In this document: positions 5,459 through 36,574 of the stretch, in pieces
Numbering within the stretch: the stretch's first letter is position 1
How the letters are laid out: the number at the start of each line of letters is the position of its first letter
Source of the DNA: Pecten maximus
Lineage: Eukaryota
Assembly: GCF_902652985.1 (NCBI RefSeq)
Contig: NC_047031.1
Coordinates: forward strand, 12,710,001 to 12,774,000
Length of the DNA: 64,000 bases
Direction: 5' to 3'
Position numbers and translations under genes: made by a program
Notes under the pieces: generated by a model
Database searches by the model: none
Told to the model about the DNA's origin: nothing
The model's input: only the letters and a program-made list of their open reading frames with translations

Positions 5459-5459
5459 G

Positions 5460-5720: not shown

Positions 5721-5909
5721 CAAACAATTAGTTATTTGGTGGCGAAAAGTATATAAAGGGATAGACTAGTTATAAACTTGCTTATGGTTAACCTATCACC
5801 GCGGAACTCTTTTTTGGAATATTAGTTATACGTGTGTGAAACATGAAGAAGGCCATAAACTATCATCATCATTGAGGGACGATCAACTCAACAGACTAAA
5901 AAATCAGGT

Positions 5910-6278
5910 ATGTCTCCACCGATTATGAATGCTTTATCGGATAAGCGATCAAAGAAAAAAAATAATACTCTTAGCGAAGAGAGAAAAAAATTGAAACAAA
6001 AGCAAGTAAAGAAACGTAAGCAAGATACTAACATGTTCGAATACATCGAAATCAAAAAAACGTTGGGAACATACGAGGAACAGTGGAATGCGGAAAAGAA
6101 TAAATTAGACGATCTTAAATTTCAACACGAAACTAAGATGTTGCAGACGAATATCCAAGAGAGTAAAAAGAAAGTGGTTAACCTCGGAAGACTCATAAAA
6201 AGCTTAAAGACTCTCGCTAATCGTAAGGATCCAAATAAAGACGAAGGTTTGACTGTACATCAGGTAGCAGAAGAATAA
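5910..6278 (+). CDS. Basic coiled-coil hypothetical viral protein
   Basis: Intact 122-aa Lys-rich helical ORF; TATA (gtatataaag, ~5749) upstream and AATAAA at ~6326. Confidence 0.6.
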   Translation: MSPPIMNALSDKRSKKKNNTLSEERKKLKQKQVKKRKQDTNMFEYIEIKKTLGTYEEQWNAEKNKLDDLKFQHETKMLQTNIQESKKKVVNLGRLIKSLKTLANRKDPNKDEGLTVHQVAEE

Positions 6279-6359
6279 CGATTGTAAATATTTGTTTGTT
6301 TTATAATTGACAATTTTTAGATTGAAATAAATCTTTTTTGCATATATTCTTGAACAAAA

Positions 6360-7508
6360 ATGTTTTCTCTTGTTGTTGCCACGATTTTATCATTGGCTTC
6401 TGCCGAAACGGTACTTAGAGCTCAAGATGTGAGTAATTTCGATTCTATCAATATAGACGGTCAGAATGTATACGTTGGCGAATATTACATCAACGTCAAT
6501 GCCTTGACTTACGATTTTACGATAGTCAATGCGTCGAGTGTCGAGTATACGATAGGTACGAAGAGTGGTGTCGAAAGCGTACTGTTGGGTGAAGGCGCGA
6601 CATTTACCGTTCCTTCGAACGAATTGATTGACACGTTGTACGTAAAAACCGAAAACATGGACGATAATACGGTCGATTTGTGGTACATTCAAGCCATACG
6701 ATTTGTCTTGACTGTCGATCAATGCGAATCTGATATTCTAAAGTTTCAATTGACTTCTACACTGAAACAGTCGTATCCCATTATGGGTCGCGTCGAATTA
6801 TTGAATACCAATGATATAAATATGTGTTCTAGCACATCTTTGGTCGGTCCCATTTCTTTTAACAAACCGGCTTGCGGTATAGAATACGAAAAACCCGAAT
6901 TGGTGTTGTTTAGCACAAACGACGTATTTTTGACATTTCAAACTAGTCAGATGTTTAACGTGACTTGTATACAAGATTTCACTATGACTAGTGTAGATCA
7001 CGACGTTTCAGAAGTGACTGTCGAAGTCGACGAGATTCAAAACATTTACGACAGTGCGTATCTCGTAGATTTGAAAATTGTCGATCCTGAAACCGATTCG
7101 CTCGTGTCCGATGTATACGTAGGCGAAAGTGTAAAAATGGTTGTGAGTTTGGGATCGTTGTTTAGAAGAGATTTCGATATTAGAATAGACGAATGTAAAT
7201 TGAGCGATGTAACCATATACGAACACGGTACAGGTCCAACAACCGGATTGTTTACCGATTTTACAGAGACAACCGACGACGTGTTTGAATCAACATTCGA
7301 TGTATTTAGAGTGAATACGAATGCGAAAGCTTCTCAATTGGTTTACGAATGTACTGTAACCACTTGCTTGGGAGAGTGTCCTCCCATGGGCGGCGGTGGT
7401 GAATTGAGAAAGAAACGTAGTGTCGTGTCTTCTTTACTACCTTCCATCGAAGTGGGTCGAGTGAAATCATACAGAACTCTTGCGTTTTTGGAAAATGTCG
7501 AATACTAA
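6360..7508 (+). CDS. Secreted zona pellucida (ZP) module protein
   Basis: Signal peptide; four-Cys ZP-N pattern (CESD...C...ACGI...FNVTC); ZP-C (VYVGESVKMVV, IRIDEC, FDVFR, YECTVTTCLGECP) followed by furin site RKKR; no introns. Confidence 0.8.
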   Translation: MFSLVVATILSLASAETVLRAQDVSNFDSINIDGQNVYVGEYYINVNALTYDFTIVNASSVEYTIGTKSGVESVLLGEGATFTVPSNELIDTLYVKTENMDDNTVDLWYIQAIRFVLTVDQCESDILKFQLTSTLKQSYPIMGRVELLNTNDINMCSSTSLVGPISFNKPACGIEYEKPELVLFSTNDVFLTFQTSQMFNVTCIQDFTMTSVDHDVSEVTVEVDEIQNIYDSAYLVDLKIVDPETDSLVSDVYVGESVKMVVSLGSLFRRDFDIRIDECKLSDVTIYEHGTGPTTGLFTDFTETTDDVFESTFDVFRVNTNAKASQLVYECTVTTCLGECPPMGGGGELRKKRSVVSSLLPSIEVGRVKSYRTLAFLENVEY

Positions 7509-8031
7509 ATTGATAACCGCTGCGAAAAATTTAGAAAGCTCTATATCTATGATGTTTGCTCATTCGGATAGAAAAACCGTCGATAACATTGTAAAAAATG
7601 AACCGAACAATCTCGTCAATAGACAATTGAAACTCGATAGTATAATGTACACTCACGAGATAACCAATAGATTTGTGGAACAATTACACGAAAATGCCAA
7701 GTGTATGAAAAAGTTGGTGATGGACACGAAACGTTTATCTAGGATAAATCTGATAAACGACAAACAATCTGATGATATTGTAAACCGCGTCGAAAAAATC
7801 ACCGCAAATATTGATAATTCTCAACTATTGATGCAAGAAATAATTACTAGCGTTGATTATTTGAAGGTTCACGTCGACAGATCCATTGTGGATGATGACG
7901 AAGATGACGAAGATAGCGGAGATCTTGTTGTGAGAAAGAAAAAACCACCTCCACCGACAACTACGATTTTACCAGACGTACCCACGACATCTCCGTCATG
8001 TTCCGACACGTCTATGACTCATTATTCTTAG
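7495..8031 (+). CDS. Helical protein, possibly a divergent Snf7/ESCRT-III (CHMP4/6/7-like) homologue
   Basis: NRFVEQLHENAKCMKKL..IVNRVEKITANIDNSQLLMQEIITSVD..DDDEDDED..LPDVPT parallels Snf7 helices 3-5, the acidic tract and a MIM2-like LPxVP motif. Confidence 0.5.
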   Translation: MSNTKLITAAKNLESSISMMFAHSDRKTVDNIVKNEPNNLVNRQLKLDSIMYTHEITNRFVEQLHENAKCMKKLVMDTKRLSRINLINDKQSDDIVNRVEKITANIDNSQLLMQEIITSVDYLKVHVDRSIVDDDEDDEDSGDLVVRKKKPPPPTTTILPDVPTTSPSCSDTSMTHYS

Positions 8032-9836
8032 TGTGTACCATTACGGTCGTTGCTGCATTTTATAACGCAGACGACGGAGAATGGTTTAGACCGTGTTACC
8101 ACACCGGTAACGAGGCTGAACATGGATTGACTATTGTTACGCCGTACGTATCTGATATATACGATACCGGTAACATGACAGACCAACAATTTTTAGCTAC
8201 GAGTGGATTACCTGTCTGTCTGATAATGCTCCCCAGTAACGAAACGACGACCTTGGCAAAGTATAATTTTTACAGACTTTATCGCAACATGCCTACATTG
8301 TCTAGTGAAGAATACAGGAAACAGATGAGTGCTGTAGTTCGTCTGATGAATTATGATCTCGTGGAAGAAGGAGTGGCGTTTGGTTACAAGAAATGGTTCG
8401 GTAGACAAGATAATCGTGTAAAGGGTGGAGTTGTTCCACCGGAAGTGACAACGACCCTATATTATACGGACAAATACGAATTGTTTTTTTATTACGACGG
8501 TCTACCTAACGAGAAGGAAAGGAGAAAGATCGACCAAAAAGGTTGCATAGATGGTGGTGTGAGATACGGCGATTACAAGTGTCTGTTTTTAACAAAATTT
8601 TACGGTCATCCTTGGAACGACTGTGCTGGAAAAAACGGTGCCGAATTGTTCGACGTAGACGATACTGTGGTGTCTAGTTTGGAAGACTATTTTAGAATAA
8701 ACAGAAATGAGACTAAGGATCTATTTGTGGTGGGACAAGTGCGCGGCGATGGTGGTCACATAGGAGGCTACAATAGAATATTTCGTAAGGGTGTTAAAAA
8801 CAGAAATTATTACAACGGATATACCGTCGGTGATCCATTGACCATGTCGTTTCACGAATCTAGTCCGGTGCTTCACGACTACGATTTAAGTATACCTCGT
8901 TACGTGGTTTGTACAGAGACTGCATATAACGAGCGTGCCATGGTTAAATGCTCACAAGATAGGAAATACAGTTTCGAGCACGATTGGTGTAGACAATTCA
9001 TGTTTCCTGATTCGGAATACGAAAAGATGCTCGAATCTATACGAAACGCCGATAGAATTAAAAACTCGAACTTTACACATCTCGTATACGTTGTGAATGA
9101 AGAACCGTCTACAACTACAACAATTCCTACAACGACCACAACGACGACCACAACAATTCCAACGACTACAAAAATTCCAACAACGACGACAATAATTCCA
9201 ACAACAACAACCACAACAATTCCCACAACGACAACGACGACAACAATTCCTACAACGACGACAACGACGACCACAACAATTCCAACGACAACAATAATTC
9301 CTACAACGAATACCTCCACAATAATTCCTACAACGAATACCTCCACAATAATTCCTACAACGAATACCTCCACAATAATTCCTACAACAACGACCTCCAC
9401 AATAATTCCTACATTTACAACAATTCCTACAACGACCACCACGACTACGACAATTCCTACAACAACGACCACCACGACTACACCTACAACAACGACCACC
9501 ACGACGACTACTACGTTAATGAAATCCACGACGACGTCGATTATTGCAAATTCTTTTACAGACTATTTTCTGCATTGGGGTAATAGAGCATTAACGACAT
9601 CCACACCTACGACAACAGAAAATTTGACCGAAAGTGGTGAATTTATGTCTATGGCAGATACGCGATCGGATGATTATATTAGACGATTCGTGTTAATTAC
9701 GGCTGGAATAACGGCTGGCTGTTTAGTGTTTTTCATCGCTGTGACATTTGTCGGCATATGGAGTTGTAAAAAATGGAATACGAATTATTGCGATCAAGAC
9801 AAGACTGTAAAATATTCAGGCGTTTCGAGAATTTGA
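7998..9836 (+). CDS. Type I membrane glycoprotein: C-type-lectin-like domain + Thr-rich mucin stalk + TM
   Basis: Signal peptide; CIDGGVRYGDYKCLF...WNDCAGKNGAELF...YVVC CTLD-like pattern; (IPTTTT)n stalk at 9110-9515; TM FVLITAGITAGCLVFFIAVTFVGIW. Confidence 0.8.
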   Translation: MFRHVYDSLFLVCTITVVAAFYNADDGEWFRPCYHTGNEAEHGLTIVTPYVSDIYDTGNMTDQQFLATSGLPVCLIMLPSNETTTLAKYNFYRLYRNMPTLSSEEYRKQMSAVVRLMNYDLVEEGVAFGYKKWFGRQDNRVKGGVVPPEVTTTLYYTDKYELFFYYDGLPNEKERRKIDQKGCIDGGVRYGDYKCLFLTKFYGHPWNDCAGKNGAELFDVDDTVVSSLEDYFRINRNETKDLFVVGQVRGDGGHIGGYNRIFRKGVKNRNYYNGYTVGDPLTMSFHESSPVLHDYDLSIPRYVVCTETAYNERAMVKCSQDRKYSFEHDWCRQFMFPDSEYEKMLESIRNADRIKNSNFTHLVYVVNEEPSTTTTIPTTTTTTTTTIPTTTKIPTTTTIIPTTTTTTIPTTTTTTTIPTTTTTTTTTIPTTTIIPTTNTSTIIPTTNTSTIIPTTNTSTIIPTTTTSTIIPTFTTIPTTTTTTTTIPTTTTTTTTPTTTTTTTTTTLMKSTTTSIIANSFTDYFLHWGNRALTTSTPTTTENLTESGEFMSMADTRSDDYIRRFVLITAGITAGCLVFFIAVTFVGIWSCKKWNTNYCDQDKTVKYSGVSRI

Positions 9837-10381
9837 TGTTGTTGAACGATTTATGTCGTGCCGTGCCTAAAGAAGTGGTGGCGAGTGTTTGTGGTGGATT
9901 GTACGAACATATCAAAGATGTTACGACGAGGCGGCTACCGTCGACATTTTTTCAATTTTTAAAACATTGTGCTTTATTGATGTTGAAAAATACACTAGAA
10001 GAAAATTTTGATGATGTGACAACTGTTAATGATGTGATTAATTTGAACAATCTCGAAATAGATCGTTATTGGAACAATGTCGATTCGTTTAAGAATGCAG
10101 ACGAGGCAAGATGCATCATAAACGATTTGTTAATCAAACAATGTAGTATTTTATCGAGAAAATTGTACGACAATATTGGTGATAATCATCCTCGGTGTAG
10201 TGCGTGTATCATTGATGCAATCACTATGGGTACCGGTAGACAAGATGATATTTGTGATAATATGATGAAACGTAAGAGTACTTCTTTTACCGATACGTCT
10301 GTATACGATAACACTTGTTATCATGTCTTACTTAAATCTTGTGGTAAATACGATAAATTAATCAAGAAAAATATGCAATGA
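9836..10381 (+). CDS. Cys-rich hypothetical viral protein
   Basis: Intact ORF; likely start ATG overlaps the previous stop (TGATG, 9834-9838); alternative start at 9773. Confidence 0.65.
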   Translation: MLLNDLCRAVPKEVVASVCGGLYEHIKDVTTRRLPSTFFQFLKHCALLMLKNTLEENFDDVTTVNDVINLNNLEIDRYWNNVDSFKNADEARCIINDLLIKQCSILSRKLYDNIGDNHPRCSACIIDAITMGTGRQDDICDNMMKRKSTSFTDTSVYDNTCYHVLLKSCGKYDKLIKKNMQ

Positions 10382-10601
10382 CTCTTGCCCTCCTCTTTTT
10401 TCCTCCTCTGGTTAGACAATTTTTGGTTGTCTTTTTATATAAAAAAAATATATATATCGTTGCAAGCCGTTTTTTATGTCTTGAGCAAAGTTTTGTTCGT
10501 TCTTTTTGCTGCCAATCGTGGCTGTAATTAGTACTGGGTCTTGATGATTCTTACGGCTGATAGCCAAGGCGTTTTCTGTCTCACACTTATGTTGTACATT
10601 C

Positions 10602-10955
10602 TCAACTCAGTGATTTAAGTATCAATCTCTCCACTGTTTCTGTGGGGCGTCTTGGGATGTATTGTGTTTCATTCCATTTTCCTATGTTGTTTGAGCTGCG
10701 CTCTTTTTGCAATAAATAAAAAAAACGTATATAAATTACACATATCTCATGGTTTTTATTCGTCTTCCTTCTACATTTACATCGTTTGTACGACCAAAAT
10801 CCACACATGGAACCGAGACAACTACAACAAAATATCAAAGATACGAATGTCAATAAGACTATGATGATGATCGGATAATATTCCAAGACGAGACCGTGTG
10901 CGACATCGTTTATGGTTTTCGATAAGAGATCAAAATCAATGTCGATGTTTATCAT
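10602..10955 (-). CDS. Small single-pass membrane protein with juxtamembrane Cys cluster
   Basis: TM IIIIVLLTFVSLIF followed by CCSCLGSMCGFWSYKRCKCRRK; divergent from PolB across a TATA-containing spacer; 3' end uncertain. Confidence 0.55.
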   Translation of the reverse strand: MINIDIDFDLLSKTINDVAHGLVLEYYPIIIIVLLTFVSLIFCCSCLGSMCGFWSYKRCKCRRKTNKNHEICVIYIRFFYLLQKERSSNNIGKWNETQYIPRRPTETVERLILKSLS

Positions 10956-11089
10956 CGTGAAACAATAAGTTGTTCCGTTTTTTCAAACAATGTATTGTTT
11001 TAAGACAAAAAAGGTCTAAACACTGTATTGTTTTTAGAAAAGGTATATATTAAACCGGTCTCTTCTATAGTGTTAGTCGACACGCCGTT

Positions 11090-13300
11090 ATGGATTGGCT
11101 ACAGTCTACGTTAGGAGTTATTCGAACTAGGAAATTAGAAAGAATAAAAAATGAATGTTCTAACGAAAAGATCGTAAAAGACACGATACGTTATTGTAAC
11201 GAAAACGGTTTGCCGAACGTACGATTGGTCGATGACGACGTTTACGATGCTTTGTTTGTCGATTCTTACGACAATTGTCGACGATACGATTGCACGGTTT
11301 TTGAAGTGTCGAAATTTAAAGAACCTGATTTCCAGGGTAAATACTTGATATCGTGTGTGTTTGATATAGAAACTGTCAACCGTTTTCAAAATAGCGAAAT
11401 AAACGACAAAATTGTTTACATCGTAATGGATACTTGCATAGCAAATAAATTACCGCCCGTCGATACGGTCTGTCTGTGTGTCACGAATCCGCTAGTAAAA
11501 ACGTACAAACGAGTGGAGAATAGGCGTTATAAATTGAACGAGTTTTCGAAACGATATGCTCACATGATCACCGATCAATATTTCGACGAAAAAACTGAAA
11601 GATATTACAATGTAGTTTATTGTCACGAAAGCGAAAAGAAATTAGTCTTATCGTTTTTAGAGATGTTGAATCGTATAAGACCACACAATCTAGTGACGTT
11701 TAACGGCGAAACATTCGACATTCCTTACTTGATAAGAGCTTGTTATACTCACGACAAAGATATGGCCAACGAATTATCGTTGATTAAACCGGGCATTTGC
11801 AAACATAGCGGGTCTCGATCCATACAGATGAATAAAAAACGTTTACCGAATCGAGGATTCATAAACAAATCCGTTTTAGATCTACAACACGATTGTTTTC
11901 AAGCATTCATACATACAGATCTGTCTAAATATAATAAGGGATCTCTAGACGAAGTGTGTACGAAACAGTTGGGGGCGAAAAAAGTGAATCTATCGTATAC
12001 AGAAATACCACACCTTGTCGAAAGTAGACACGAAAAATTGTTGATTTACAACATAAGAGACACGGAGTTGACAACTAGACTTTTCATGAAGGATTATTTC
12101 ATGACGATAGGATATTACACCACGTTAGAAAAAATCAATTCCGTCTTGTGGGATGTTTCTAGTAGCATGAAAAGATCGGTTCCGGCGTATCAAGCTAATT
12201 ATTCTACGAACGAACGACACGATTTCGTTCAGCCTAGCGTGTTGAAACCGCGCAAGAAACAAGTATGGGTGGTGTACAGAGAAATGATATCCTATTTTGT
12301 GAAACACAGGCAGCAACAGAACCTAGACGAAATGAAATACGCAGACGCTAAACAAGCGTTAGTCGAGTATCACAACGGTAACGTCTCGATGAAAGATCAA
12401 CAGAAATGGTATCGATTGAAAAAAAACGTGACTTCGGCAGATGCCATCGGTCTTTTGGAACGACAAATGAGAGACGTACATAAATACACTACGTTTGATT
12501 TATTGAATTACTTGTCGTACTTGTCGAACGTTTGCACACAATTTACGCCTTTTCTGATGTTGTTCAATAATAAATTTCTACGCACCTATTCTTTCGACAA
12601 ACCAGACCGTATCGCGAAAGAACGCGAAAAGTTTATGGAATTTGCGTATTATCTAACGACGGTGAGAAGATTCATATCTCCTTTCGATACAGCGAAGATA
12701 TGTTGGGCTAGTTATGCCGAATACTACAACACTCACACCAACGTTCGCATACTGAAACAGTTTTTCGACGACCATTTCACGAATCGCAAGACCGGCACGA
12801 TAACTCGAGAATTATACGATGTAGTCGTCGAATGCCAACGAAATAATACACATCGACGTATATTTCAAAATCCAGACAAGATAGTCGACGATATAATGGA
12901 AAGTTTATTGGCCAATTACAAAGAGTTGGTCATAAAAACGACGTACGATGGCGCATTCATCGCCGATCCTGTATCGGGAATCAATTGTGAATTTCCCGTA
13001 GTTGTCGTCGACATAGCATCGCAGTATCCGTCTTGTATAAGAGCTTTGAATCTGAGTGCTCAGACAGAAATCTCGTTGGAATACATAGAAAGAAATCGTC
13101 CGAAGCGCGGAACTGATTTTTACGCCGTCAATTTACGACGATGCGACGATTTGATTGAGTACGAGGTCTATCTAGAGTTAGGCATGAGAGAATACGTTAA
13201 CGATATCGATTATGTTAAAAATATTGTATACAACAAATTCATGTCAAAACGTAACGAAAATACTATAAACGTTAGCGGGTTCCTCGTGTTTGCCGCATGA
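11090..13300 (+). CDS. polB: Family B DNA polymerase, N-terminal part (3'-5' exonuclease + motif A only)
   Basis: ExoI VFDIET, ExoII TFNGETFDIPYL, ExoIII YNIRD, YDGAFIADP..G and VVVVDIASQYPS; no KxxxNSxYG or YGDTDS before the stop. Confidence 0.92.
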   Translation: MDWLQSTLGVIRTRKLERIKNECSNEKIVKDTIRYCNENGLPNVRLVDDDVYDALFVDSYDNCRRYDCTVFEVSKFKEPDFQGKYLISCVFDIETVNRFQNSEINDKIVYIVMDTCIANKLPPVDTVCLCVTNPLVKTYKRVENRRYKLNEFSKRYAHMITDQYFDEKTERYYNVVYCHESEKKLVLSFLEMLNRIRPHNLVTFNGETFDIPYLIRACYTHDKDMANELSLIKPGICKHSGSRSIQMNKKRLPNRGFINKSVLDLQHDCFQAFIHTDLSKYNKGSLDEVCTKQLGAKKVNLSYTEIPHLVESRHEKLLIYNIRDTELTTRLFMKDYFMTIGYYTTLEKINSVLWDVSSSMKRSVPAYQANYSTNERHDFVQPSVLKPRKKQVWVVYREMISYFVKHRQQQNLDEMKYADAKQALVEYHNGNVSMKDQQKWYRLKKNVTSADAIGLLERQMRDVHKYTTFDLLNYLSYLSNVCTQFTPFLMLFNNKFLRTYSFDKPDRIAKEREKFMEFAYYLTTVRRFISPFDTAKICWASYAEYYNTHTNVRILKQFFDDHFTNRKTGTITRELYDVVVECQRNNTHRRIFQNPDKIVDDIMESLLANYKELVIKTTYDGAFIADPVSGINCEFPVVVVDIASQYPSCIRALNLSAQTEISLEYIERNRPKRGTDFYAVNLRRCDDLIEYEVYLELGMREYVNDIDYVKNIVYNKFMSKRNENTINVSGFLVFAA

Positions 13301-13331
13301 ATAAAACAAAACAAACAAAAAAGGATGTTTT

Positions 13332-13901: not shown

Positions 13902-14016
13902 TTTTTCGATGGGTAGATAACTCTGTAAAGATATACAGGAGATCCACTTCTGATGGCTGTTGTAGGATTGAATGGCGGAATATATATAACAACGGGTGGT
14001 TAATCTAATTTTAAAA

Positions 14017-14210
14017 CAGAACAATAAGTTATTCTGACTCTGAGAGAATAATTAATTATTCTCCATCAGAACAATAAGTTATTCTGACTCTGAGAATAAT
14101 AAGTTATTCTCTTATTTATTGTCGAATAATAAGTTATTCTCCTTTTGGATAATACCTCTCTCCTCCCCCTTTTACCATCAGTCTGCTATAGTACGTGGTA
14201 GAGATAGGAT
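14017..14210. repeat. hr-like palindrome cluster 1 (5 copies)
   Basis: Imperfect palindrome GAGAATAA-TAAG-TTATTCTC repeated, followed by the atcagtctg...gtacgtggt.gaga motif shared with cluster 2. Confidence 0.85.
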
Positions 14211-14233
14211 GTATTGTTTACATACTCTACAGT

Positions 14234-14500
14234 ATGGGAGGTATTGATTTTTATTATGGTGATAATCAGTGTAGTTGCTCAGCGTGTGAACATTACAAGA
14301 TTTACTCATGCGATATTGACACACTAATACGTCTTGAAGGTTGGTCTTACATCAATGGTGAAGAAATAAAAAATGAACATGTCGGCGAACTCGTCAAGAT
14401 ATTGTATAGACTATGGAAAAAAGACAAATCTATCGACAGTGATTATATGAGATTGTTATTTATGTTCAGTGAACACATAGGTACAGAAATATCTTCATAG
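14234..14500 (+). CDS. Small hypothetical viral protein (CxCxxC motif)
   Basis: Intact 88-aa ORF from ATG 14234 with composition like neighbouring island genes. Confidence 0.5.
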   Translation: MGGIDFYYGDNQCSCSACEHYKIYSCDIDTLIRLEGWSYINGEEIKNEHVGELVKILYRLWKKDKSIDSDYMRLLFMFSEHIGTEISS

Positions 14501-14549
14501 ACTATTGTCTAGCTTACGCACAGGATGTGTGGAGCTAACCAGGAATAAC

Positions 14550-15900
14550 TACCGCGGGTTTTTTTAAAAAAAAAACTATTTCGCGGGTTTTTTTTAAACA
14601 TTTCCCGCGTTAGACTTGTCACATGATTTTCATAAATTGCAGACGTGGACATCTGCTAAGTCGGTCACAGCGGTTTTTAAAAAGTGAACTTTATACTCAA
14701 AGTTCAGGTAAACATCTGCCAAGTGGGTCAGCTGGAACTTTGCACTTTAAACAAAGGAATCACGTGTTATTTTTCGACAGATGTCGAGGTCGCACGTGGA
14801 AATAATAATACATTTTGACGTCAGTCGCTTGTAGGTTAAACCTTTTAACACGTGTTGAAAGATTTAAGTGGTTTAAAAATATGATCTTTGTTTGTTAAGG
14901 GGGTCAGTGAGAGGCCGCAAGAGGTTTTTCCCCACAAAACAAAGTGTCAGTGAGAGGCCACAAGGGGTTTTCAGGTGTCAGTGATTGTTTTCCCAGACTT
15001 TTTGGCACCAAGCCACTTGGGAGGTTAAGTGTTTTAAAATGTTCTTTGTTTGCCAAGGAGGTTAAGTGGGTTTACAAACATGTTCTTTGTTTGCAAAGGG
15101 GGTCAGTGAAAGGCCGCAAGAGGTTTTCCCCACAAAAAAAGTGTGAAGGACGTCTCTCGACCAATGAAAGCGTTTGTCTCTTTGACCAATGAAAAAGTAG
15201 GTCTCTTTCGACCAATGAAAGAGTTGTATTTGATCACGTGGTGACGCGGTTGCTAAAGAGAGAACTGTTTTGTTAGTCAATAGTCCACAATATCTCGGAG
15301 AGAGAGGACGTATGTTTGAGCCAGTGGAGAATATAGAAAACTTCAAGCAGAGAGAAACAGGGTTTATATTAACGTAAAAAGGTGAGTGTTTTTTTTTTAT
15401 ATATTTTGGTGTGTGTATAAAGATTTTACATCCAGAATATCCAGTAAAATAGCCGGCAATTCAGTATATAAACACATAGAGTTAGAGAGAAACAGGGTTA
15501 ACGTTGTGGTTTTATAAAAAATTTGGTGTTACAAAGCCGGTAAATGGTTATTAGCCCTACGAGAAATCTTGAACAGGAGAAAAATTGTAAATGATGGTAA
15601 AATAAACGACATAACTTCACCATGGCTGTTTTATTTTTTCAAATATGAAGTTTATAACCCTACATAACTCGGCTCCGGCATCGTGACCGACGTTATTTCG
15701 TGATAACTCAGTTTGAAAATGAGTACAAGTCAACTAACCTATTTTCGGTTTCGGTCTGCGTGACGTCAGTCTCGTTGTTGTGTATATATACACACTGGAG
15801 GTGGTGTATTATATATACACTGGAGGTGGTGTGTTATACCGAACAATTAGTTGAACAATTAAGTTATCAAACAATTAATTATCGAACAATTACCGAACAA
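14550..15900 (+). promoter_or_regulatory. Non-coding enhancer/promoter-like block
   Basis: Three gaccaatgaaa CCAAT boxes at 25-26 bp spacing (15161, 15186, 15212), E2F-like cgcggg/tttcccgcg, CACGTG, TGACGTCA (~15761), duplicated ~40-bp units at 14900 and 15100. Confidence 0.45.
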
Positions 15901-15987
15901 TTGATTGTTTTACCACATTTCAAAAATACAATATATTGTTTTGCAATTCAATTAAAATTTCATTTCTTTTTTTTTCCAGAAACAAAT

Positions 15988-16379
15988 ATGTGGTTTAAGT
16001 ACAGCCCTAAAGGTACAAGGCCTCCTTCCACGTACGACGCTTCAGAATGGCTGGAATTATTGAGGAACAAAGGTTACGTGGACAACACCAACCTGGACGA
16101 CGGTCGCCTGACAACAATGAAATTATTTTCATTAACGAGCAACAAACTTCATCACCGTCCAGATGATACTGCAACAATCGTATCAGAAATTACACAATAC
16201 CTAATTGGTAAAGGAGAGGATACAACAGACATCTTGAAACAAATGGAAGTAATTACAAAATGGAAGAGCATCTATCACAAGACACCCAAGGCTCCCAATG
16301 AACACAGTTATCCACAGCGCTATAGAATCTGGGATTTACGGAAAGTGGGTGTGAATGAAAACATGGCACTGGATTGTTT
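15988..16379 (+). CDS. Hypothetical protein with a possible DED-like segment, running into the assembly gap
   Basis: YDASEWLELLRNKGYVDNTNLD resembles DED helices 4-5; ATG preceded by a polypyrimidine-CAG acceptor. Confidence 0.45.
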
Positions 16380-17088
16380 NNNNNNNNNNNNNNNNNNNNN
16401 NNNNNNNNNNNNNNNNNNNNNNNNNNNNNNNNNNNNNNNNNNNNNNNNNNNNNNNNNNNNNNNNNNNNNNNNNNNNNNNNNNNNNNNNNNNNNNNNNNNN
16501 NNNNNNNNNNNNNNNNNNNNNNNNNNNNNNNNNNNNNNNNNNNNNNNNNNNNNNNNNNNNNNNNNNNNNNNNNNNNNNNNNNNNNNNNNNNNNNNNNNNN
16601 NNNNNNNNNNNNNNNNNNNNNNNNNNNNNNNNNNNNNNNNNNNNNNNNNNNNNNNNNNNNNNNNNNNNNNNNNNNNNNNNNNNNNNNNNNNNNNNNNNNN
16701 NNNNNNNNNNNNNNNNNNNNNNNNNNNNNNNNNNNNNNNNNNNNNNNNNNNNNNNNNNNNNNNNNNNNNNNNNNNNNNNNNNNNNNNNNNNNNNNNNNNN
16801 NNNNNNNNNNNNNNNNNNNNNNNNNNNNNNNNNNNNNNNNNNNNNNNNNNNNNNNNNNNNNNNNNNNNNNNNNNNNNNNATCAGCCACAGCAATTCTTGT
16901 GGGAAAAAACAACAACATTCATCTAATAAGTCTTGATTCTGCTTCAACACTTCTAAATCTTGTACAGAAGACATCCGAGAGAAGATACACCTGAACAACA
17001 CCTGAACAAACAATGATTATGATGTTCCATCGTTGGTATATATACGCACAACACACCACCCACACACACGAACAATACATTGTTCCGC

Positions 17089-17853
17089 CTAAGAACAAGT
17101 TATTGTTTTGTCTGCCGTCATCACCTTTTCTATTGGTCCTCCGGCGTCTTCAATCCATGCATTGATTTCTTCAAAAGATATAGGAGGATAATACATACAC
17201 ACCGATATCAATTTATTGTAGTCGATATCTAATCCGAGCTTGATGATGCTCGATATCACTGTTTCGCACGATGTAGTATTATTGCGCAGCAAATCATGCA
17301 TTGTTACACAATAATGTAATGTGTATTCTTTATAATCCACATCCTGTAGGTCGTATTTATGGATCAACCCTACCGCAATACAGGATTCTGATGCACCTAA
17401 AACTCTACACAATCTTCTCAAGTCTCTATCTTTTTCAATACTATTGGCTATACAAAACAATTGAATTCCCGTCACTTCTTGTTTCAACTTGTTCAATCCC
17501 ATAGCAACCGAACACACGTTGTTCGAAAAACCGAGATTTTCTAGACAGGTTGCCATAATAAATATCACATCATCGGCAGGGTTTGCTCGTATATTCAAAA
17601 CCCATTTATGTATCAACCGATAATTTATCTCGTAGTCGTCATCACCGCTGTTGATGCAATCTCTTACAAAAATACTGATTGTTTGTTTCGTTTGTTCTCC
17701 AATATCATAGTTGTCTCCTGACACTAATTGATGGACATCTTTTGTAGTTAGAGTCAAAGCTAGATGATCAATCAGTGTGTTCCAGTTTACGTCATCTAAT
17801 ATCTGGTCCATTAGCCTAGAAACAGCATCGTATACGTGGTACGGAAAAACCAT
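17089..17853 (-). CDS. Tandem death-domain-like protein
   Basis: VTGIQLFCIANSI..DLRRLCRVLGASESCI...ETVISSIIKLGL matches the death domain pattern; the N-half (NWNTLIDHL...YRLIHKW...MATCLENLG) looks like a second copy. Confidence 0.65.
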   Translation of the reverse strand: MVFPYHVYDAVSRLMDQILDDVNWNTLIDHLALTLTTKDVHQLVSGDNYDIGEQTKQTISIFVRDCINSGDDDYEINYRLIHKWVLNIRANPADDVIFIMATCLENLGFSNNVCSVAMGLNKLKQEVTGIQLFCIANSIEKDRDLRRLCRVLGASESCIAVGLIHKYDLQDVDYKEYTLHYCVTMHDLLRNNTTSCETVISSIIKLGLDIDYNKLISVCMYYPPISFEEINAWIEDAGGPIEKVMTADKTITCS

Positions 17854-18041
17854 CTTCTTGCTTTTCTATTCTGATATTTTTACAACGTTTTATATATATC
17901 TACTGGTTAAACTGAAACAATGTATTGATCTGTTTATGGTCGATAAATTTCCGGTTTTTTGTTTCTTTCAACTGTCATAGTTAGAAAACTATTAGTGAAT
18001 TACAAAAAAAAAATAATTTACAAAACACAAAAAAAAAAACA

Positions 18042-18440
18042 ATGAGAGGGTTAGTTACATTACTGGTAGTAGTAGCAGTGACGTTATTAAAACATGGTGA
18101 CGCATCAAAAGTATTTATGTCGCAACCGGTCAATCCTTGGGTTCAAGAACAACCCCGAACCGTTTTTCACGTGCAAGTACCAGAAGATGTCCCATTTTGT
18201 GGTAACGAATATTCACATCATTTAGCTTGTATGTACTGTGTTGGATCATCGTGTGATGGTCAGGATATTGAAGGAAACGAGATATTAGTACATTTTAAAG
18301 ACGACGACAAAGTTTGTATCAATCGTTTAAAAATTGTAACTGATCCTTTCCCCGATGGTATGTGTGGTCCGTGGATCGATAGTCATACTATGATCGCCGA
18401 TAATTTTCCGAGACGACGTCCTAATCCTCCCAGCAAATAA
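18042..18440 (+). CDS. Secreted six-Cys protein of unknown function
   Basis: Signal peptide, 6 Cys, AATAAA overlapping the stop. Confidence 0.7.
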   Translation: MRGLVTLLVVVAVTLLKHGDASKVFMSQPVNPWVQEQPRTVFHVQVPEDVPFCGNEYSHHLACMYCVGSSCDGQDIEGNEILVHFKDDDKVCINRLKIVTDPFPDGMCGPWIDSHTMIADNFPRRRPNPPSK

Positions 18441-18516
18441 AACAATTTATTGATTTAGACTCACTTATATATATATATATATATGTAATATAGTGCAATG
18501 TGTCATCACAACAACA

Positions 18517-19338
18517 ATGGTTGCGCTTGTACTACTCGTTAGTAATCGAGATTTTAAAAACAAGTCAGAACGTCCACAAAGATTTGGTGCTCTTAGAGAT
18601 GCAAAAACACTCAGAAGATGTTTTTCAAAATATCCAGGTATCAAATTTATGGAAAAATATGATGACGAGAGTCGAGAATTTAACGACGTGGAACACATTC
18701 ACATCAATTTAACAGAGAAAGATCTGTTAGAAACATTAAAACGAGCGGCTATACGTATCGAAGAGTCTGAATTCGAAAGTTTTATATGCGTAATATCCTC
18801 TTATGGATCGGGATCAAAAATGGTAATGTGTCCTGGGGAAGGCAGAGTCTTCGGAAGCCCAGTGACTGGATTGTTTAAAAACGGAAAATTAGTCGGAAGC
18901 CGCTATCTTGGATCCGAAGAAAAGGACAGTATCGTTAGAGTGCAAGATATTATCGACATTTTTAACAAAACAAAAAAAATTCCAAAGTTTTTCTTCATCC
19001 AGAACGATTGTCCATACGAAATAACCCATTCGGGAAAGAACCACGTCACTCCAGTACCAGAATGGGTTGTTAACCAACAACAACCGACGTTATTATGCGA
19101 CAACGTATTGATACATTCGATGCCCCAAGATATAGAGTCGTGTTGGGGATGGTTTCGAAACAGAGGACGAGGTTTGTCTCATTACACACAAGCATTGTGT
19201 AGAGCATTGACCGATTACAACAACACAGATGATTTCATTTCGCTATTGAATAAAATATTCAAGGACGATGATAAAGAAGAACCCACAACGTTATCTACAT
19301 TATTAGGTAACAATAATTCATTGTTTGTCCATGCTTGA
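18517..19338 (+). CDS. Caspase-fold (peptidase C14A) protein with altered catalytic residues (cFLIP-like pseudocaspase)
   Basis: LLVSNRDF..RFGALRDAKTL, NLTEKDL, SFICVISSYG (normally SHG), KIPKFFFIQND (normally QACRG), RNRGRGLSHYTQALC, PTTLSTL. Confidence 0.85.
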   Translation: MVALVLLVSNRDFKNKSERPQRFGALRDAKTLRRCFSKYPGIKFMEKYDDESREFNDVEHIHINLTEKDLLETLKRAAIRIEESEFESFICVISSYGSGSKMVMCPGEGRVFGSPVTGLFKNGKLVGSRYLGSEEKDSIVRVQDIIDIFNKTKKIPKFFFIQNDCPYEITHSGKNHVTPVPEWVVNQQQPTLLCDNVLIHSMPQDIESCWGWFRNRGRGLSHYTQALCRALTDYNNTDDFISLLNKIFKDDDKEEPTTLSTLLGNNNSLFVHA

Positions 19339-19393
19339 CAATAAATTGTTTTATATATATATATAAGTTGTGTGTGTGTGAAAAGAGATAACC

Positions 19394-19705
19394 ATGGTGG
19401 ACTTAGGTCGACCCATAACAGGGCGTGTATCGGATGTTAGGGTGGAATCTACAATGATTATCGAATTGGATGCACCACCCAGTCAATCTCTAGCTCCATA
19501 CCTAGGAATACGGACAGACGCTTATGAAGTAATCCACGCACTATATGATAAAAACATCATCGGTTTTGAACACTACCAAGTTCTCGCTGAATCTTTGAGA
19601 GAGTCGGCCAACGTAATCGACAAAATTAAAATCAACCTAATCGGCGAGAGGACTTCTCTAAAGAAGAAAACCACAAAAAAAGGAAAAGGACTTCAAACAG
19701 AGTGA
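19394..19705 (+). CDS. Small protein with a DED-like segment
   Basis: RTDAYEVIHALYDKNIIGFEHYQVLAESL resembles the DED C-terminal half; own TATA (19351) and AATAAA (19751). Confidence 0.5.
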   Translation: MVDLGRPITGRVSDVRVESTMIIELDAPPSQSLAPYLGIRTDAYEVIHALYDKNIIGFEHYQVLAESLRESANVIDKIKINLIGERTSLKKKTTKKGKGLQTE

Positions 19706-19829
19706 AGCGTCTCAGGAAAAGAATGAACAATACATTGTTGTAAAAAAAACAATAAATTGTTTATACATTATATATATAAAAGTGTTTTTTTTTTTTTTTT
19801 TTGGAAAACTTCCAAAAATGGAAAGTAAC

Positions 19830-20120
19830 ATGAAAAAACTCGAACGTTTGTTGGCCACTATGTCATTTGAAGATGCATACTAGAAAAATACGAAGAAAAT
19901 ATGGAGCTTGGAAATGACAATGATCATCGATGCAGCAATCGACGTTGTGGCGAATTCTCTATCTCCATACCTAGGAGGAGGATTACAGTAGACATTTTTG
20001 AAGTAGTTAGTGCGTTATAAAAACCTCATCTGTTTTGGAAATTACATCGAAGAATCTTTGATGATGGAGGATGTTGAGCGACATAATCGTCAATTACACA
20101 AGAAAAATGAAAGATTTTAA
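19830..20120 (+). pseudogene. Degenerate tandem paralogue of ORF 19394-19705
   Basis: 19955-20060 (tctctatctccatacctagga...gaagta...aaaacctcatc...gaatctttg) aligns with 19487-19598; stops and frameshifts present. Confidence 0.7.
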
Positions 20121-20164
20121 TGAACTCAACATAATGGACATATTCCGACCACAAAAAGAAGTTC

Positions 20165-20440
20165 AAAACGTCTAAAGAACATTAAAAAAGTCTGATTAAA
20201 GGACCCGATGAGGGGTCCTATGGCCGTTCGTACGAAGAACATCCGTGATTCTGTCACCAGAAACGGAGCATCACCCGGGGGGGTCCACATGAATTATTGG
20301 AGCCGGAAAGATGTGTTCCTGTGATATCGCGGGGACATGTCACTTTAAAAAACGCCCTCTTTCCGTTGTGGACTTGTGACACCGCCCTAATCCAGTACAC
20401 TCAATTCATGTGTAACAAACACCTCAGACGTTTTTTTTTT
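20165..20440 (+). ncRNA. Candidate structured non-coding RNA
   Basis: GC-rich island with six or more nested stems, G-U pairs on the + strand, pairing ends and a terminal T10 run. Confidence 0.45.
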
Positions 20441-20576
20441 AAAAATAAAAAATTTATATAAATTATGGGTTTTTTTTGTTATGTTTTTAAAAAAAACAAC
20501 TATTTTTGTGTGTTGGAGTTATCTGCCCTAATTACCTCCCTTTGAAAAAAAGACAAGTAGCTTCACGAAAAAAAAG

Positions 20577-21084
20577 TTTCTCAGTAACAAGTTGTCAATC
20601 AGTTAAAAATTTGAGCATAGGTTCGTTTCGTAAATCACATAATGTATATATCCTAGGAAAAATGTTAAAATGGTTGTACAATGTATGATGTTTTTATACA
20701 ACGTAATAAGTGTTGTATCAAGTGTTTTACGGTCACGAAAAATTTGAGCATAGGTTCGTTTCGTAAATCACATAATGTATATATCCTAGGAAAAATGTTA
20801 AAAAATGGTTATACAAATGTTTTTATACAACGTAATAAGTGTTGTAGCAAGTGTTTTTATACAACGTAATAAGTGTTGTAGCAAGTATATACATCACGAA
20901 AAATTTGAGCATAGGTCCGTTTCGTAAATCACATAATGTATATATCCTAGGAAAAATGGTTATACAATGTATGATGTTTTATACAACGTAATAAATGTTA
21001 TAACATTGTAGGAAGTGTTTTACAATGTAATAAGTGTTTATACATTGTAAGATAAATCAGTTTTTTTTCTCAGTAACAAGTTGT
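20577..21084. repeat. Three ~133-160 bp tandem units bracketed by a 19-bp direct repeat
   Basis: aaaaatttgagcatagg at 20605, 20738 and 20899; tttctcagtaacaagttgt at 20577 and 21066. Confidence 0.9.
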
Positions 21085-21151
21085 TGTCTTTCCCCTGTAA
21101 CATTATATATTACCTCCTCACAAAAACCTTTGCTTGAATAACCCTACAGCA

Positions 21152-21805
21152 TGTCCTCTCTCCACCACGTACGATAACAGACTGATCCTGTCTATTGACT
21201 TTAGACTAATAAATAACGAATAACTTATTATTCTCCATCAGAATAACTTATTATTCTCATAGACAGAATAACTTATTATTCTCATAGACAGAACAATTTG
21301 TTATTCTCCATAAGTCAGAATAACTTATTATTCTCCTTTTGACAATTGAGAATAACTTATTATTCTCCTTCGAGAAATTCGACAAATAAGAGAGAATAAC
21401 TTATTATTCGACAATCTTATGACGATGTACCCACAATCTTATATAATCGCGTCCCACGACACAACCCAACACGACGTTCTCTCTCTCCCACCACGTACAG
21501 ACTGATCCTGTCTAATGACTCTCTAGACTAATAAATAACGTATTATTCTGACAATTGAGAACAATTTATTATTCTCCTTTTGACGATTGAGAATAACTTA
21601 TTATTCTCCTTCGAGAATAACTTATTATTCTCCTTTTTGAGAATAACTTATTATTCTCACAATTGAGAACAATTTATTATTCTCCTTCGACAGAACAACT
21701 TGTTATTCTGACAATTGAGAATAACTTATTATTCTTCGACAGAACAATTTATTATTCTTCGAACAACACACATTGGATCAGTCTGTACGTGGTGGAGAGA
21801 GGACA
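21152..21805. repeat. hr-like palindrome cluster 2 (~16 copies) inside ~30-bp inverted flanks
   Basis: GAGAATAA-CTTA-TTATTCTC variants; 21152-21188 is inverted to 21775-21805. Confidence 0.9.
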
Positions 21806-22019
21806 CGATGGCCAGGTAAAGGGGGGGGGGGGGGGGGGTAAAAAAAGACACCCCTCCCCCCCTTATTTTTACAAAATTTTTATAAGGAAAAACAATTTTC
21901 ATATGCATCATTACAGGTGTTTTTTTTCCACACATATACTTTTTTGTTTTTTTTTTAAGACTCTCTCTCTTCATAACCAAAAGTAACATTGGGTGTCGCA
22001 TTTTTTTTTCTTTTCTGAT

Positions 22020-22893: not shown

Positions 22894-22899
22894 TATATA

Positions 22900-32180: not shown

Positions 32181-32191
32181 CTGATAGGGCT

Positions 32192-36490: not shown

Positions 36491-36574
36491 GATATGTGTG
36501 TTGAAATTTTGCATGTGGGGCAAATAAGCGTTTTACAATTTTGGCACAAGAAAAACACGTCATTGTCTTTGATC

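Follow-up and report, generated by a model that had tools for sequence, protein, structure and literature searches.

A probable young germ-line fragment of a large nuclear double-stranded DNA virus in the genome of Pecten maximus

Gene content and borders of the virus-like segment

The window analyzed here is a stretch of 64,000 nucleotides from C17 of the Pecten maximus assembly (contig NC_047031.1, positions 12,710,001 to 12,774,000), and all positions given below refer to it. A segment of ~16 kb (5721-22019) carries 14 intronless, ATG-started ORFs of 88 to 736 aa, which span 5910-19705 and leave 19706-22019 free of any of them. The coding fraction is 0.92 at 5721-13901, 0.81 at 16881-19705, and 0.66 over the whole segment, and ORFs of at least 100 aa cover 0.62 of the segment versus 0.23 of each flank. 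The CpG o/e ratio is 1.67 in the left arm and 0.78-0.99 in the flanks. The features of the locus are as follows:

5154-5720, no strand: left host flank, a patchwork of 50-140 bp pieces drawn from several host repeats (LTRs, one monomer of a 156-bp satellite, and, at 5637-5720, part of a LINE RT)
5721-22019, no strand: the inserted element, a probable piece of a large dsDNA virus, endogenised and rearranged
5910-6278, plus: 122-aa basic ORF without a family match
6360-7508, plus: 382-aa secreted ZP-like protein (Pfam VERL_C at E 9e-4, which misses the curated cut-off); hydrophobic N-terminus and, close to the C-terminus, RKKR, which we take to be a furin site
7495-8031, plus: 178-aa ORF without a family match
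7998-9836, plus: 612-aa mucin-like type I membrane protein with a Cys-rich ectodomain, a Thr-rich stalk, and a TM segment at aa 561-591
9773-10381, plus: 202-aa Cys-rich ORF without a family match
10602-10955, minus: 117-aa small membrane protein, hydrophobic at aa 17-55
11090-13300, plus: family-B DNA polymerase (PolB), C-terminally truncated (Pfam exo domain, E 5.5e-8)
13332-13901, minus: 189-aa ORF without a Pfam match even at E 10; by eye its N-terminal part presumably resembles an F-box
13999-14205, no strand: palindrome array 1, hr- or ori-like, five sites plus a flanking motif, oriented opposite to the arrays on the right
14234-14500, plus: 88-aa ORF, its DNA 81-88% identical to six genomic copies elsewhere
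14501-15987, plus: noncoding, putatively regulatory region with three CCAAT boxes at 15161-15212, two TGACGTCA, and four CACGTG
15264-16379, no strand: first part of the two-copy arm, matching the end of contig C3953 at 99.8% identity
15988-16379, plus: ORF entering the assembly gap
16380-16879, no strand: scaffold gap of 500 N, within which read contigs reveal more sequence
17089-17853, minus: 254-aa orphan, mostly helical
18042-18440, plus: 132-aa small secreted Cys-containing protein
18517-19338, plus: 273-aa pseudo-caspase (Pfam Peptidase_C14, E 2.5e-10), catalytic dyad not in place
19394-19705, plus: 103-aa ORF without a Pfam match, presumably DED-like as judged by eye
20190-20458, no strand: noncoding stretch, 73-93% identical to multi-copy host elements
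20599-21052, no strand: tandem repeats of 161 bp and shorter, with a 52-60 bp unit common to a virus-like segment on C10 (82-96%)
21140-21810, no strand: palindrome arrays 2 and 3 (seven and eight sites), with an inverted flanking motif on both sides
22020-22900, plus: right host flank, a 5'-truncated Tc1/mariner element 99.7% identical to a full copy at about 1300-2811

Both junctions (5720/5721 and 22019/22020) are sharp: a host LINE fragment stops at 5720 and the truncated Tc1 begins at 22020. Neither terminal inverted repeats nor a target-site duplication were found at the borders, and the core of the segment is single-copy in the genome. A diagnostic 24-mer of the flanking Tc1/mariner has 353 exact copies in the assembly. 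The left-flank patchwork possibly represents templated insertions at a repair junction. The first-pass annotation had placed the borders at these positions and had described about 14 intronless, tightly packed ORFs, and on both counts it was correct. Its description of the ORFs as almost all intact is an overstatement, given that the PolB homology stops near aa 705 and that a 337-aa ORF, complete on contig C3953, is reduced to its last ~40 codons at 15255-15377. Nor are the neighboring elements all degraded, as had been suggested for the retroelements, since a 339-aa Tc1 ORF and Gypsy frames of 432 and 339 aa are open.

Twelve ORFs are orphans for which Pfam returned nothing credible even at E 10, and PHROGs gave a match for only one of 17 proteins, to a family of unknown function. 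The 382-aa ZP-like ORF has no other match in the genome at E ≤ 0.01. The 612-aa mucin-like protein has neither a family nor a PDB match, and its layout makes it a candidate envelope or cell-surface glycoprotein. The pseudo-caspase gene is intronless, and its relative is an intron-split host pseudo-caspase gene on C15; based on this homology, the protein is probably a FLIP-like decoy against apoptosis. For the 254-aa ORF, no homologue was present among 295 candidates and a single-sequence model (pLDDT 39.6) had no fold match; Death-domain rows in the ESM Atlas (0.81-0.84) give a weak lead toward a death-fold. A decayed paralogue of the 103-aa ORF may lie at about 19900-20120 (tblastn E 0.78).

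The PolB gene and its relatives

The divergent PolB noted in the first-pass annotation is indeed present. The ORF retains the exonuclease, the insertion domain, and motif A; its homology ends ahead of motifs B and C, which are missing together with the thumb, and the last ~30 aa are nonhomologous. The missing part was sought in the genome and not found. A naturally split PolB was also considered, and because the genome holds no second half, truncation is preferred.

Among 1.84 billion representatives, 35 relatives were found at E ≤ 1e-30. A tree was built that also included 30 further PolBs, some with Pol-delta-like motifs, and no named viral reference; in it, the window PolB and 23 members group as a single clade at support 1.0, on a long stem. 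Inteins were matched in three members, and members sit on ENA contigs of 136, 152, 214, 247, and 306 kb as well as in the sea-slug assemblies of Elysia marginata and E. chlorotica (two proteins, RUS71492.1 and GFS16413.1). Among the ENA contigs, one of 213,672 bp encodes P0003 and those of 247,071 and 306,209 bp encode P0054/P0189; P0043 and P0041 are likewise encoded on ENA contigs. Two previously described sea-slug elements look like different entities: the asfarvirus-like regions of E. marginata (available text of PMC10640383; the ASFV PolB ranks 21 in the structural search below) and the E. chlorotica retrovirus (available text of PMC13673630).

Looking up 23 of the clade's clusters turned up no named virus, and no named malacoherpesvirus appeared in these clusters, in the P0052 search, or in the named rows of the best 50 BFVD matches. 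By this indirect comparison, the PolB is not close to those of OsHV-1 and HaHV-1. Structural searching with Foldseek (BFVD) placed the HSV-1 polymerase first (E 6.9e-23, 13% identity), with hytrosavirus, dinoflagellate-virus, granulovirus, and other polymerases among the further matches at E 3.6e-20 to 8e-20. Within the best 50 rows, 12 of which are unnamed and none malaco-named, hytrosavirus ranks 4, granulovirus 6, nudiviruses 40 and 48, and alloherpesviruses 44 and 50; the named viral polymerases are roughly equidistant, with 10–19% structural identity. A PDB profile search ranked Pol delta first, followed by one archaeal PolB and then HSV UL30, and the ESM Atlas placed P0036 just among generic PolBs. 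When viral and metagenome contigs were scanned with P0003, P0050, and alignment A1, no confirmed relative emerged; the phage collection gave no match, and no description of this clade was found in the literature searched, which covered subscription journals only in small part.

A grouping with cellular Pol alpha, delta, or zeta was not observed; such a grouping with delta or zeta, combined with intron-containing host orthologues of the ORFs in synteny, had been named at the outset as a finding that would speak against a viral origin. The window PolB stands apart in the tree. The PolB genes of the host itself are intron-split and lie on other chromosomes; the host RNR-small genes are likewise intron-split and located elsewhere. 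The lineage of this PolB is widespread and, across the databases searched, corresponds to no named virus family; the element is not an orphan but a member of a sizeable unnamed PolB clade.

Repeats, regulatory signals, and sequence shared with mobile elements

All 20 sites of an 18-bp imperfect palindrome lie within the element: five at 14018-14140 and, in the opposite orientation, 15 at 21217-21758. Exact genome-wide matches to the motif all fall in this element (9 of 9; one match for a reversed-pattern control), and arrays 2 and 3 have an ssDNA fold z of −15.8 against 20 shuffles. One motif family thus lies on both sides of the gap, as the first-pass annotation had seen, in three arrays rather than two. 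Another piece of the tandem repeats at 20599-21052 is common to a host array on C4.

A poly(A) signal is found at six of 13 stops (11.6% expected, p about 0.002) and a TATA motif upstream of six of 14 ORFs (16% expected), at about −35 to −50, whereas DTAAG precedes just four of 14. A candidate GT..AG intron of about 600 nt lies immediately upstream of the ORF at 15988; promoter and intron roles in 14501-15987 are suggested by these motifs. Both kinds of signal suggest the use of host RNA polymerase II and hence nuclear replication, as read from motifs in AT-rich DNA.

Two short stretches are shared with Polinton-like elements. One copy of the 88-aa ORF, viewed with 10 kb of context, adjoins a BIR gene and an integrase in such an element, and homologues of 20190-20458 at two loci with 10 kb of context lie in the intergenic region of Polinton-like elements. 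The related virus-like fragment on C10 lies between a Tc1 and a Polinton, and the C10 and C17 fragments both touch the same Tc1 family.

Rearrangement and inheritance of the segment

The arm starting at 15264 occurs twice, inverted, each copy having a different unique neighbor, and its contig depth is about twice that of the left arm (about 1:2 in two individuals). On contig C3953, a copy of part of the element, rearranged in another way, joins host DNA at a second virus-host junction. The host portion of this contig is a haplotig of C17:12.85 Mb, and C3954 carries the same host sequence without the virus. Two different virus-host junctions thus lie within about 130 kb of one chromosome, in an arrangement that may be partly mis-scaffolded, as the local assembly is tangled (three haplotigs and an inversion). 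Read contigs extend about 1,570 and 1,066 nt into the 500-N gap, so the gap conceals additional sequence.

In the presumed source run (X1), contig depth is 7-9 for the left arm, 18-21 for the right arm, and 11-13 for host allele contigs, values that are taken from contigs and hence are not copy numbers. One contig of this run covers 5691-9320 with zero differences. The left junction is covered in reads by 30 host letters, one short of our 31-letter rule, and no read contig among the matches listed bridges 22019/22020. Long-range joints from 5083 to 17996 and from 21957 to 5601 were set aside because they fall in repeats or homopolymers.

The stretch is present in 10 of 24 runs among the matches listed, from six studies, where P3 and P4 are possibly one data set filed twice. 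Run X4 carries other flank alleles (six differences plus a gap in 0.83 kb), while its element shows no differences in five listed contigs (about 4.1 kb) and one in a sixth. No RNA run stands among the listed runs that contain the stretch. Runs X5 and X9, which are only guessed to be RNA, show no differences in nine element contigs among the matches listed, X9 being without cover over 12796-21427, a lack to which no weight is given. Three other studies of the species carry the element almost without differences while the flanks vary. Host-like depth and near-identity in other studies with variable flanks indicate that this is most likely a young, inherited insertion; it is probably hemizygous. 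The read-depth comparison suggested in the first-pass annotation therefore came out in favor of integration.

Origin of the segment

Taken together, we interpret the segment, with a probability of roughly 0.8, as a young, germ-line-inherited, replication-dead fragment of a nuclear large dsDNA virus of invertebrates, probably of molluscs, with a PolB lineage that has no named member in the databases searched. Depth, independent samples, the PolB clade, and the intron-split host PolBs support the earlier view that a large nuclear dsDNA virus integrated recently, with the correction that the element is a rearranged, defective fragment and not an orphan. The viral assignment draws on the PolB lineage and the architecture because, as the first-pass annotation had said and the Pfam search of the fragment's ORFs bears out, no capsid, terminase, or PIF gene is visible in the fragment, and for the same reason the family cannot be assigned.

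Under this interpretation, the free virus would be transcribed by host RNA polymerase II, as its TATA boxes and poly(A) signals suggest, and would replicate with its own PolB from the palindrome arrays as hr- or ori-like elements. It would carry genes acquired from host mRNA, including the pseudo-caspase, and the shared sequence suggests that virus and resident Polinton-like elements exchanged DNA, in either direction. Nonhomologous repair of a broken germ-line chromosome would have captured viral DNA. The observed breaks could go back to one complex event that produced the truncated PolB, the cut ORF, the patchwork junctions, and the nearby second, inverted arm copy. The insertion, seen in several samples, would by now be a passively segregating haplotype, probably hemizygous and possibly with weak transcription.

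The same integration could stem from a deep-branching member of the Herpesvirales, with the arm from 15264 as a viral inverted repeat; we consider this possible, though rather unlikely. It is compatible with the main explanation, from which it differs in taxonomy alone. The HSV-1 polymerase as best structural match, the rank of UL30 in the PDB search, the Pol II signals, the 136-306 kb contigs of the relatives, and an inverted arm with two unique neighbors at about 1:2 depth all agree with this idea, as do divergent herpes-related lineages reported for starfish and ribbon-worm genomes in the accessible part of 10.1101/2025.04.19.649669. Yet the HSV-1 match is barely ahead of the hytrosavirus and others, alloherpesviruses rank low, no malaco-named row appears among the best 50 (12 being unnamed), and none of the 23 clade clusters is named as a herpesvirus, even though malacoherpesvirus PolBs match one another at E 1e-98 or better, according to the available text of PMC5552708. 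Pfam found no terminase ATPase, HK97-type major capsid protein, or portal in the fragment; genome searches with PF02500 and PF04631 were empty, but controls were equally silent. We regard it as improbable that the virus belongs to the Naldaviricetes (nudi-, nima-, or hytrosa-like), in which case the palindrome arrays would be homologous regions. The element's imperfect palindromes, dispersed over three arrays, agree with this class; palindromic homologous regions are not exclusive to it. The hytrosavirus and granulovirus PolBs rank high in the structural search, and endogenous nimaviruses are common in crustaceans (PMC10871703, as far as available), but the fragment contains no PIF gene, DTAAG is scarce, nudiviruses rank low, and none of the 23 clusters is a named member. 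Pfam found no Nucleocytoviricota double jelly-roll capsid, A32 ATPase, or viral RNA polymerase in the fragment, and the Pol II-type signals would argue against that phylum. As for Mirusviricota, with their HK97 capsid module and unicellular known hosts, the fragment has no capsid gene; according to the available texts, the nuclear orders mostly lack PolB (PMC12768974) and the host survey excluded Metazoa (PMC10827195).

That the segment is instead a giant cargo-carrying mobile element, either an enlarged Polinton or a Tc1-bounded composite with an acquired PolB and host cDNAs, seems very unlikely. The two stretches shared with Polinton-like elements, the position of the C10 relative, and the common Tc1 family fit such an origin, but these stretches are short, the single-copy core lacks TIRs and a target-site duplication, and the segment contains no integrase, protein-primed PolB, or capsid. 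Moreover, the clade's PolBs are intein-bearing, of the exonuclease type, and located on 200-300 kb contigs, which to our knowledge is not a Polinton trait. Hardly any weight attaches to a co-assembled exogenous or persistent virus with no chromosomal insertion. The N gap within the element, repeats at both borders, the second arrangement on an unplaced contig, and the right junction, unbridged among the matches listed, could be read in this way; however, depth is host-like in two DNA runs, near-identity extends across samples from 2017-2021, two virus-host junctions lie close together, no second part of the truncated PolB was found, and the searches made recovered no further viral genes.

On the preferred reading, an integrated viral fragment, the segment is a fossil of an ordinary kind, left by a virus lineage that apparently has yet to be described. 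A wider proposal, to which we give slightly less than even odds, is that the PolB clade marks a group of nuclear DNA viruses of 150-300 kb, of family or order rank and as yet undescribed, that infect molluscs and other invertebrates and fall neither in Malacoherpesviridae nor in any named family of Naldaviricetes. These viruses would have entered germ lines repeatedly, perhaps via Tc1 breaks, traded DNA with Polintons, and used the pseudo-caspase, standing alone, to block apoptosis, as a form of viral FLIP that lacks tandem DEDs. The germ-line entries cited for the clade are at least two related fragments in this genome, the two Elysia assemblies, and a fixed truncated copy behind cluster P0001. 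Within the literature examined, in the parts available, the known large nuclear DNA viruses of molluscs are malacoherpesviruses. The segment gives a host link to a PolB lineage that would otherwise be seen only in unnamed proteins from metagenomes and sequencing runs, and several clade contigs are long enough for whole genomes, so that classification could proceed by annotating existing contigs. It also supplies markers with which samples from unexplained shellfish disease could be surveyed, as well as a dated example of genes passing between host, Polintons, and a large virus.

Comparison with known systems

The systems compared here are described as in the available parts of the sources cited. 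Like the malacoherpes-like BelcheriHV-1 of lancelets (PMC12373286), the Pecten segment is repeat-flanked DNA of a large dsDNA virus in an invertebrate chromosome, present in one or two copies, with far fewer SNPs than the host and dispensable among individuals. BelcheriHV-1 is 150 kb long with 27 malacoherpesvirus homologues, whereas the Pecten segment is 16 kb long and rearranged, with a truncated polymerase, and its PolB clusters looked up include no named malacoherpesvirus relative. The Herpesvirales-related regions of starfish and ribbon worms (10.1101/2025.04.19.649669) are likewise divergent, PolB-bearing viral DNA in invertebrate genomes outside named families; they were required to have at least three matches to known herpesviral families, while in the Pecten segment PolB alone matches any viral family.

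Endogenous nimaviruses (PMC10871703) share the presence of nuclear large dsDNA invertebrate viruses in host genomes and host-like anti-apoptotic cargo, but they are multi-copy, complete, and inserted site-specifically via tyrosine recombinases, in contrast to the low-copy, broken Pecten segment, which has no match to a recombinase or nimaviral core gene. As in Teratorn, the piggyBac-alloherpesvirus fusion (PMC10175614), a young cut-and-paste transposon abuts viral DNA at both Pecten loci, a likeness based on n = 2 loci in transposon-rich regions; unlike in Teratorn, the Tc1 is truncated at the C17 junction, its termini do not bound both ends, and the virus is incomplete. Finally, c-FLIP and v-FLIPs (PMC13233873) resemble the Pecten pseudo-caspase in that it is a host-derived, catalytically dead caspase homologue, located beside ORFs with weak death-fold likeness. 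Whereas v-FLIPs are defined by tandem DEDs, the Pecten protein is a stand-alone caspase-like domain with putative death-folds in its neighbors.

The element at 5721..22019

We consider, with a probability of about 0.82, that the ~16-kb element at 5721..22019 is an inherited piece of some large nuclear virus that has no named relative in these searches. The window covers 12,710,001-12,774,000 of contig C17 (33.9 Mb; assembly, 918 Mb). As reported in the first-pass annotation, the element carries 14 ORFs without introns, all within 5910-19705. The coding fraction is 0.92 in the left arm (5721-13901), 0.27 at 13902-16379, 0.81 at 16881-19705, and 0 at 19706-22019; under a single rule (ORFs of at least 100 aa), the element reaches 0.62 versus 0.23 in each flank. 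Its GC content resembles that of the host, and the CpG observed/expected ratio is 1.67 in the left arm versus 0.78-0.99 outside the element, with only 0.88 in the middle part and only 1.09 in the right part. On the left, the border comes directly after a patchwork of repeat pieces, each 50-140 bp long, of which the last is an 84-bp LINE fragment with its end at 5720, and on the right the element passes into a Tc1 copy at a position internal to Tc1. Neither a target-site duplication nor a terminal repeat was seen at these borders. The left patchwork also holds a 136-bp piece of a 156-bp satellite unit (98.5% to 46025-46160). Surrounding features are the following:

1300-2811, 22020-22900: Tc1/mariner family, very young, intact 339-aa transposase, copies 99.7% alike
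43434-46201, 35247-36495, 27419-27725, 42584-42711: host satellites, repeat periods 156, 211, and 32 bp
33209-34669, plus strand: 486-aa intronless ORF without a Pfam match, overlapping an LTR-like repeat

Two runs, tentatively taken as RNA, cover 3500-5197 in the host flank to a depth of 30-75, and this region beside the insertion is possibly transcribed.

An 18-bp imperfect palindrome (at most two mismatches) occurs at 20 sites, every one within the element, grouped in three arrays rather than the two described initially. All nine exact matches in the genome lie within the element (control, 1), and the fold of the right-hand arrays has a z of -15.8 versus 20 shuffles. A G-run, an A-run, and a C-run at 21810-21900, near the right end, may resemble herpesvirus packaging signals.

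The PolB lineage

Close relatives of the window PolB show 38-47% identity, and a four-sequence profile run against 1.84 billion representatives retrieved 35 at E<=1e-30. A phylogeny against named viral groups had been proposed earlier; in our FastTree tree of 54 proteins (the window PolB, 23 selected clade members, mostly near full length, and 30 selected others; 658 columns), which included no named viral reference, the window PolB and its 23 relatives formed one clade apart from the 30 others (support 1.0, stem 0.89). Among the 23 clade clusters looked up, two are Elysia proteins (GFS16413.1 and RUS71492.1) and none is a named virus, the remaining names being "hypothetical", one of them given to an 88-aa fragment with an E. 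coli label. Several members are encoded on ENA contigs 136-306 kb long, taken here to be viral genomes, and intein models match three members. In protein P0041, a RING finger is inserted in PolB. Cluster P0001, with 11 members on ~7.2-kb contigs, 7 of which share an end residue just after motif C while 4 are shorter pieces, is likely another endogenous copy.

A good model of clade member P0036 (pLDDT 82), searched against the viral structure database BFVD, matched herpes-, hytrosa-, baculo-, nudi-, nucleocyto-, and bacterial virus polymerases equally well, with identities of 10-19% and a best E of 6.9e-23; among the best 50 matches, 12 are unnamed. Pol delta, an archaeal PolB, and HSV UL30 topped the PDB profile ranking, all covering the catalytic core only, and the host PolB genes, on C5, C10, C14, and C3522, are intron-split. 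The clade, the structural and PDB matches, and the split host genes together indicate a lineage that is neither cellular, the alternative raised in the first-pass annotation, nor near any named family reached. An indirect test did not place the window PolB in Malacoherpesviridae. Because the fragment has no virion gene by which to weigh Herpesvirales, Naldaviricetes, or Mirusviricota, the lineage is left without a class, and that it represents a new family or higher group is a tentative proposal, to which we give slightly less than even odds. No account of the clade was found in the literature searched, which lay mostly outside subscription journals and whose supplements may bear on it.

A broken fragment, partly present twice

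The element is a broken fragment. The ORFs had been described as almost all intact, which is too strong: PolB and a 337-aa ORF are truncated. The window PolB can be aligned to its relatives as far as ~aa 705, with motif A present and motifs B and C absent; its last ~30 residues are unrelated, and a poly(A) signal lies at its stop. A genome search with a full-length relative found the window locus alone (one match of three candidates). The start of contig C3953 matches window 15264-16105 at 99.8%. This stretch is preceded by the 337-aa ORF, complete here but reduced in the window to its last ~40 codons; next come a PolB piece of 88 bp and then host DNA. C3953:1-1963 is a second virus-host junction, and its 337-aa ORF is coiled-coil-like. 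The host side of C3953 is a haplotig of C17:12.852-12.860 Mb, and contig C3954 has this host sequence free of virus and runs on into window 29699-32193. Hence, the region holds part of the element in two oppositely oriented copies and also has an empty site. Around C17:12.74-12.86 Mb (C3953, C3954, C345) there are three haplotigs and an inversion, so the order described here is provisional.

Inheritance and age

The stretch 9600-14000 was present in 10 of 24 listed runs (6 studies, single organism). Among these, one study is perhaps the source, two perhaps represent a single data set, and one share is too small to be relied on. For 4 of these 10 runs (X1, X4, X5, and X9), listed contigs were compared with the window, with depth read from contigs and thus not a copy number. 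In X1, which may be the source, depth is 7.4-9.5 across the left arm and 18-21 beyond 15264 versus 11-13 in host allele contigs. X4, taken as another individual because its flank alleles differ from the window (e.g., at 3550, 4065, and 4267), has 23-41 and 45-68 in the element versus 38-63 in the flank; depth relative to the flanks, a comparison called for earlier, thus speaks for the insertion. At the junctions, cover of the left one extends over 30 host letters, one short of the tool threshold of 31, and none of the listed contigs bridges the right one.

X4 shows 0 differences from the element in five listed contigs and 1 in a sixth, with one more listed at 15831, and X5 and X9 show 0 in nine listed element contigs, whereas their flank contigs differ at many sites. 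The same near-identity inside and polymorphism outside is described for BelcheriHV-1 (PMC12373286). This pattern marks a young insertion and bears out the recent integration originally proposed; the element is most likely a young, inherited insertion.

A second virus-like fragment and transposon contacts

A further segment was found on another contig:

C10:40,722,460 to about 40,733,000: second virus-like segment, with a complete Tc1 on one side and a Polinton-like element on the other

It starts where a complete copy of the window's Tc1 family ends. Its RNR small subunit gene lacks introns, unlike the intron-split host gene on C4, and it also carries a second pseudo-caspase, 23% identical to that of the window (E 6e-7), several orphans, and a repeat unit in common with window 20599-20954; its CpG observed/expected ratio is 1.2-1.5. 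No PolB of the window's clade was found in it, so we only infer its kinship with the element. Long tandem arrays (units of about 2,194, 617, and 1,395 bp), which include sequence also present in Polinton-like elements, occupy C10:40,690,000-40,721,000 and 40,741,000-40,763,000.

In the window, the 88-aa ORF and 20190-20458 match multi-copy host elements at 73-93% identity. Where these were read with 10 kb of context, at three loci, they were Polinton-like, a label based partly on what we take to be Polinton gene content. This exchange would predate the insertion, given how little the remainder of the element varies. A decayed BIR-like piece at 27815-27971 matches the gene beside the 88-aa ORF in Polinton-like elements. 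A Tc1 24-mer has 353 exact matches in the assembly, and two among about five junctions are virus-Tc1 contacts, which is above the genome-wide rate; both regions are transposon-rich, and the C17 Tc1 copy is broken internally. Tc1-assisted capture of viral DNA at the C17 and C10 fragments, for which Teratorn is the comparison (PMC10175614), may be considered as a lead only.

Transcription signals and probably captured genes

Of 13 stops, 6 have a poly(A) signal (chance expectation 11.6%, p about 0.002), and of 14 starts, 6 have a TATA box upstream (chance expectation 16%), in four cases at -34 to -51. These signals suggest a nuclear cycle with transcription by host Pol II. The caspase-domain protein of 273 aa has Tyr in place of the caspase catalytic His, and its Cys motif is out of register with the caspase motif. 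The same Tyr occurs in a host gene 42-48% identical to it over two exons:

C15:6,394,400-6,395,200: host intron-split pseudo-caspase (c-FLIP-like)

This gene likely represents the donor family of both viral copies. Judged from sequence, the simplest reading is that the pseudo-caspase was captured from host mRNA and would act as a FLIP-like decoy. Unlike the known v-FLIPs, which carry tandem DEDs (PMC13233873), it is a caspase-domain protein. For the adjacent 254-aa and 103-aa ORFs, resemblance to a death fold is no more than a lead. Surface cargo comprises a secreted ZP-like protein, whose ZP match is of VERL type, a mucin-like membrane protein, and two small proteins that are secreted or membrane-bound. 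The VERL-type match and the relatives in Elysia sea slugs make a molluscan host likely.

Comparison with known systems

Endogenous large DNA viruses known in invertebrates include herpes-like genomes in lancelets, nimaviruses, and divergent herpes-related regions in starfish and ribbon worm, and the window element works like these.
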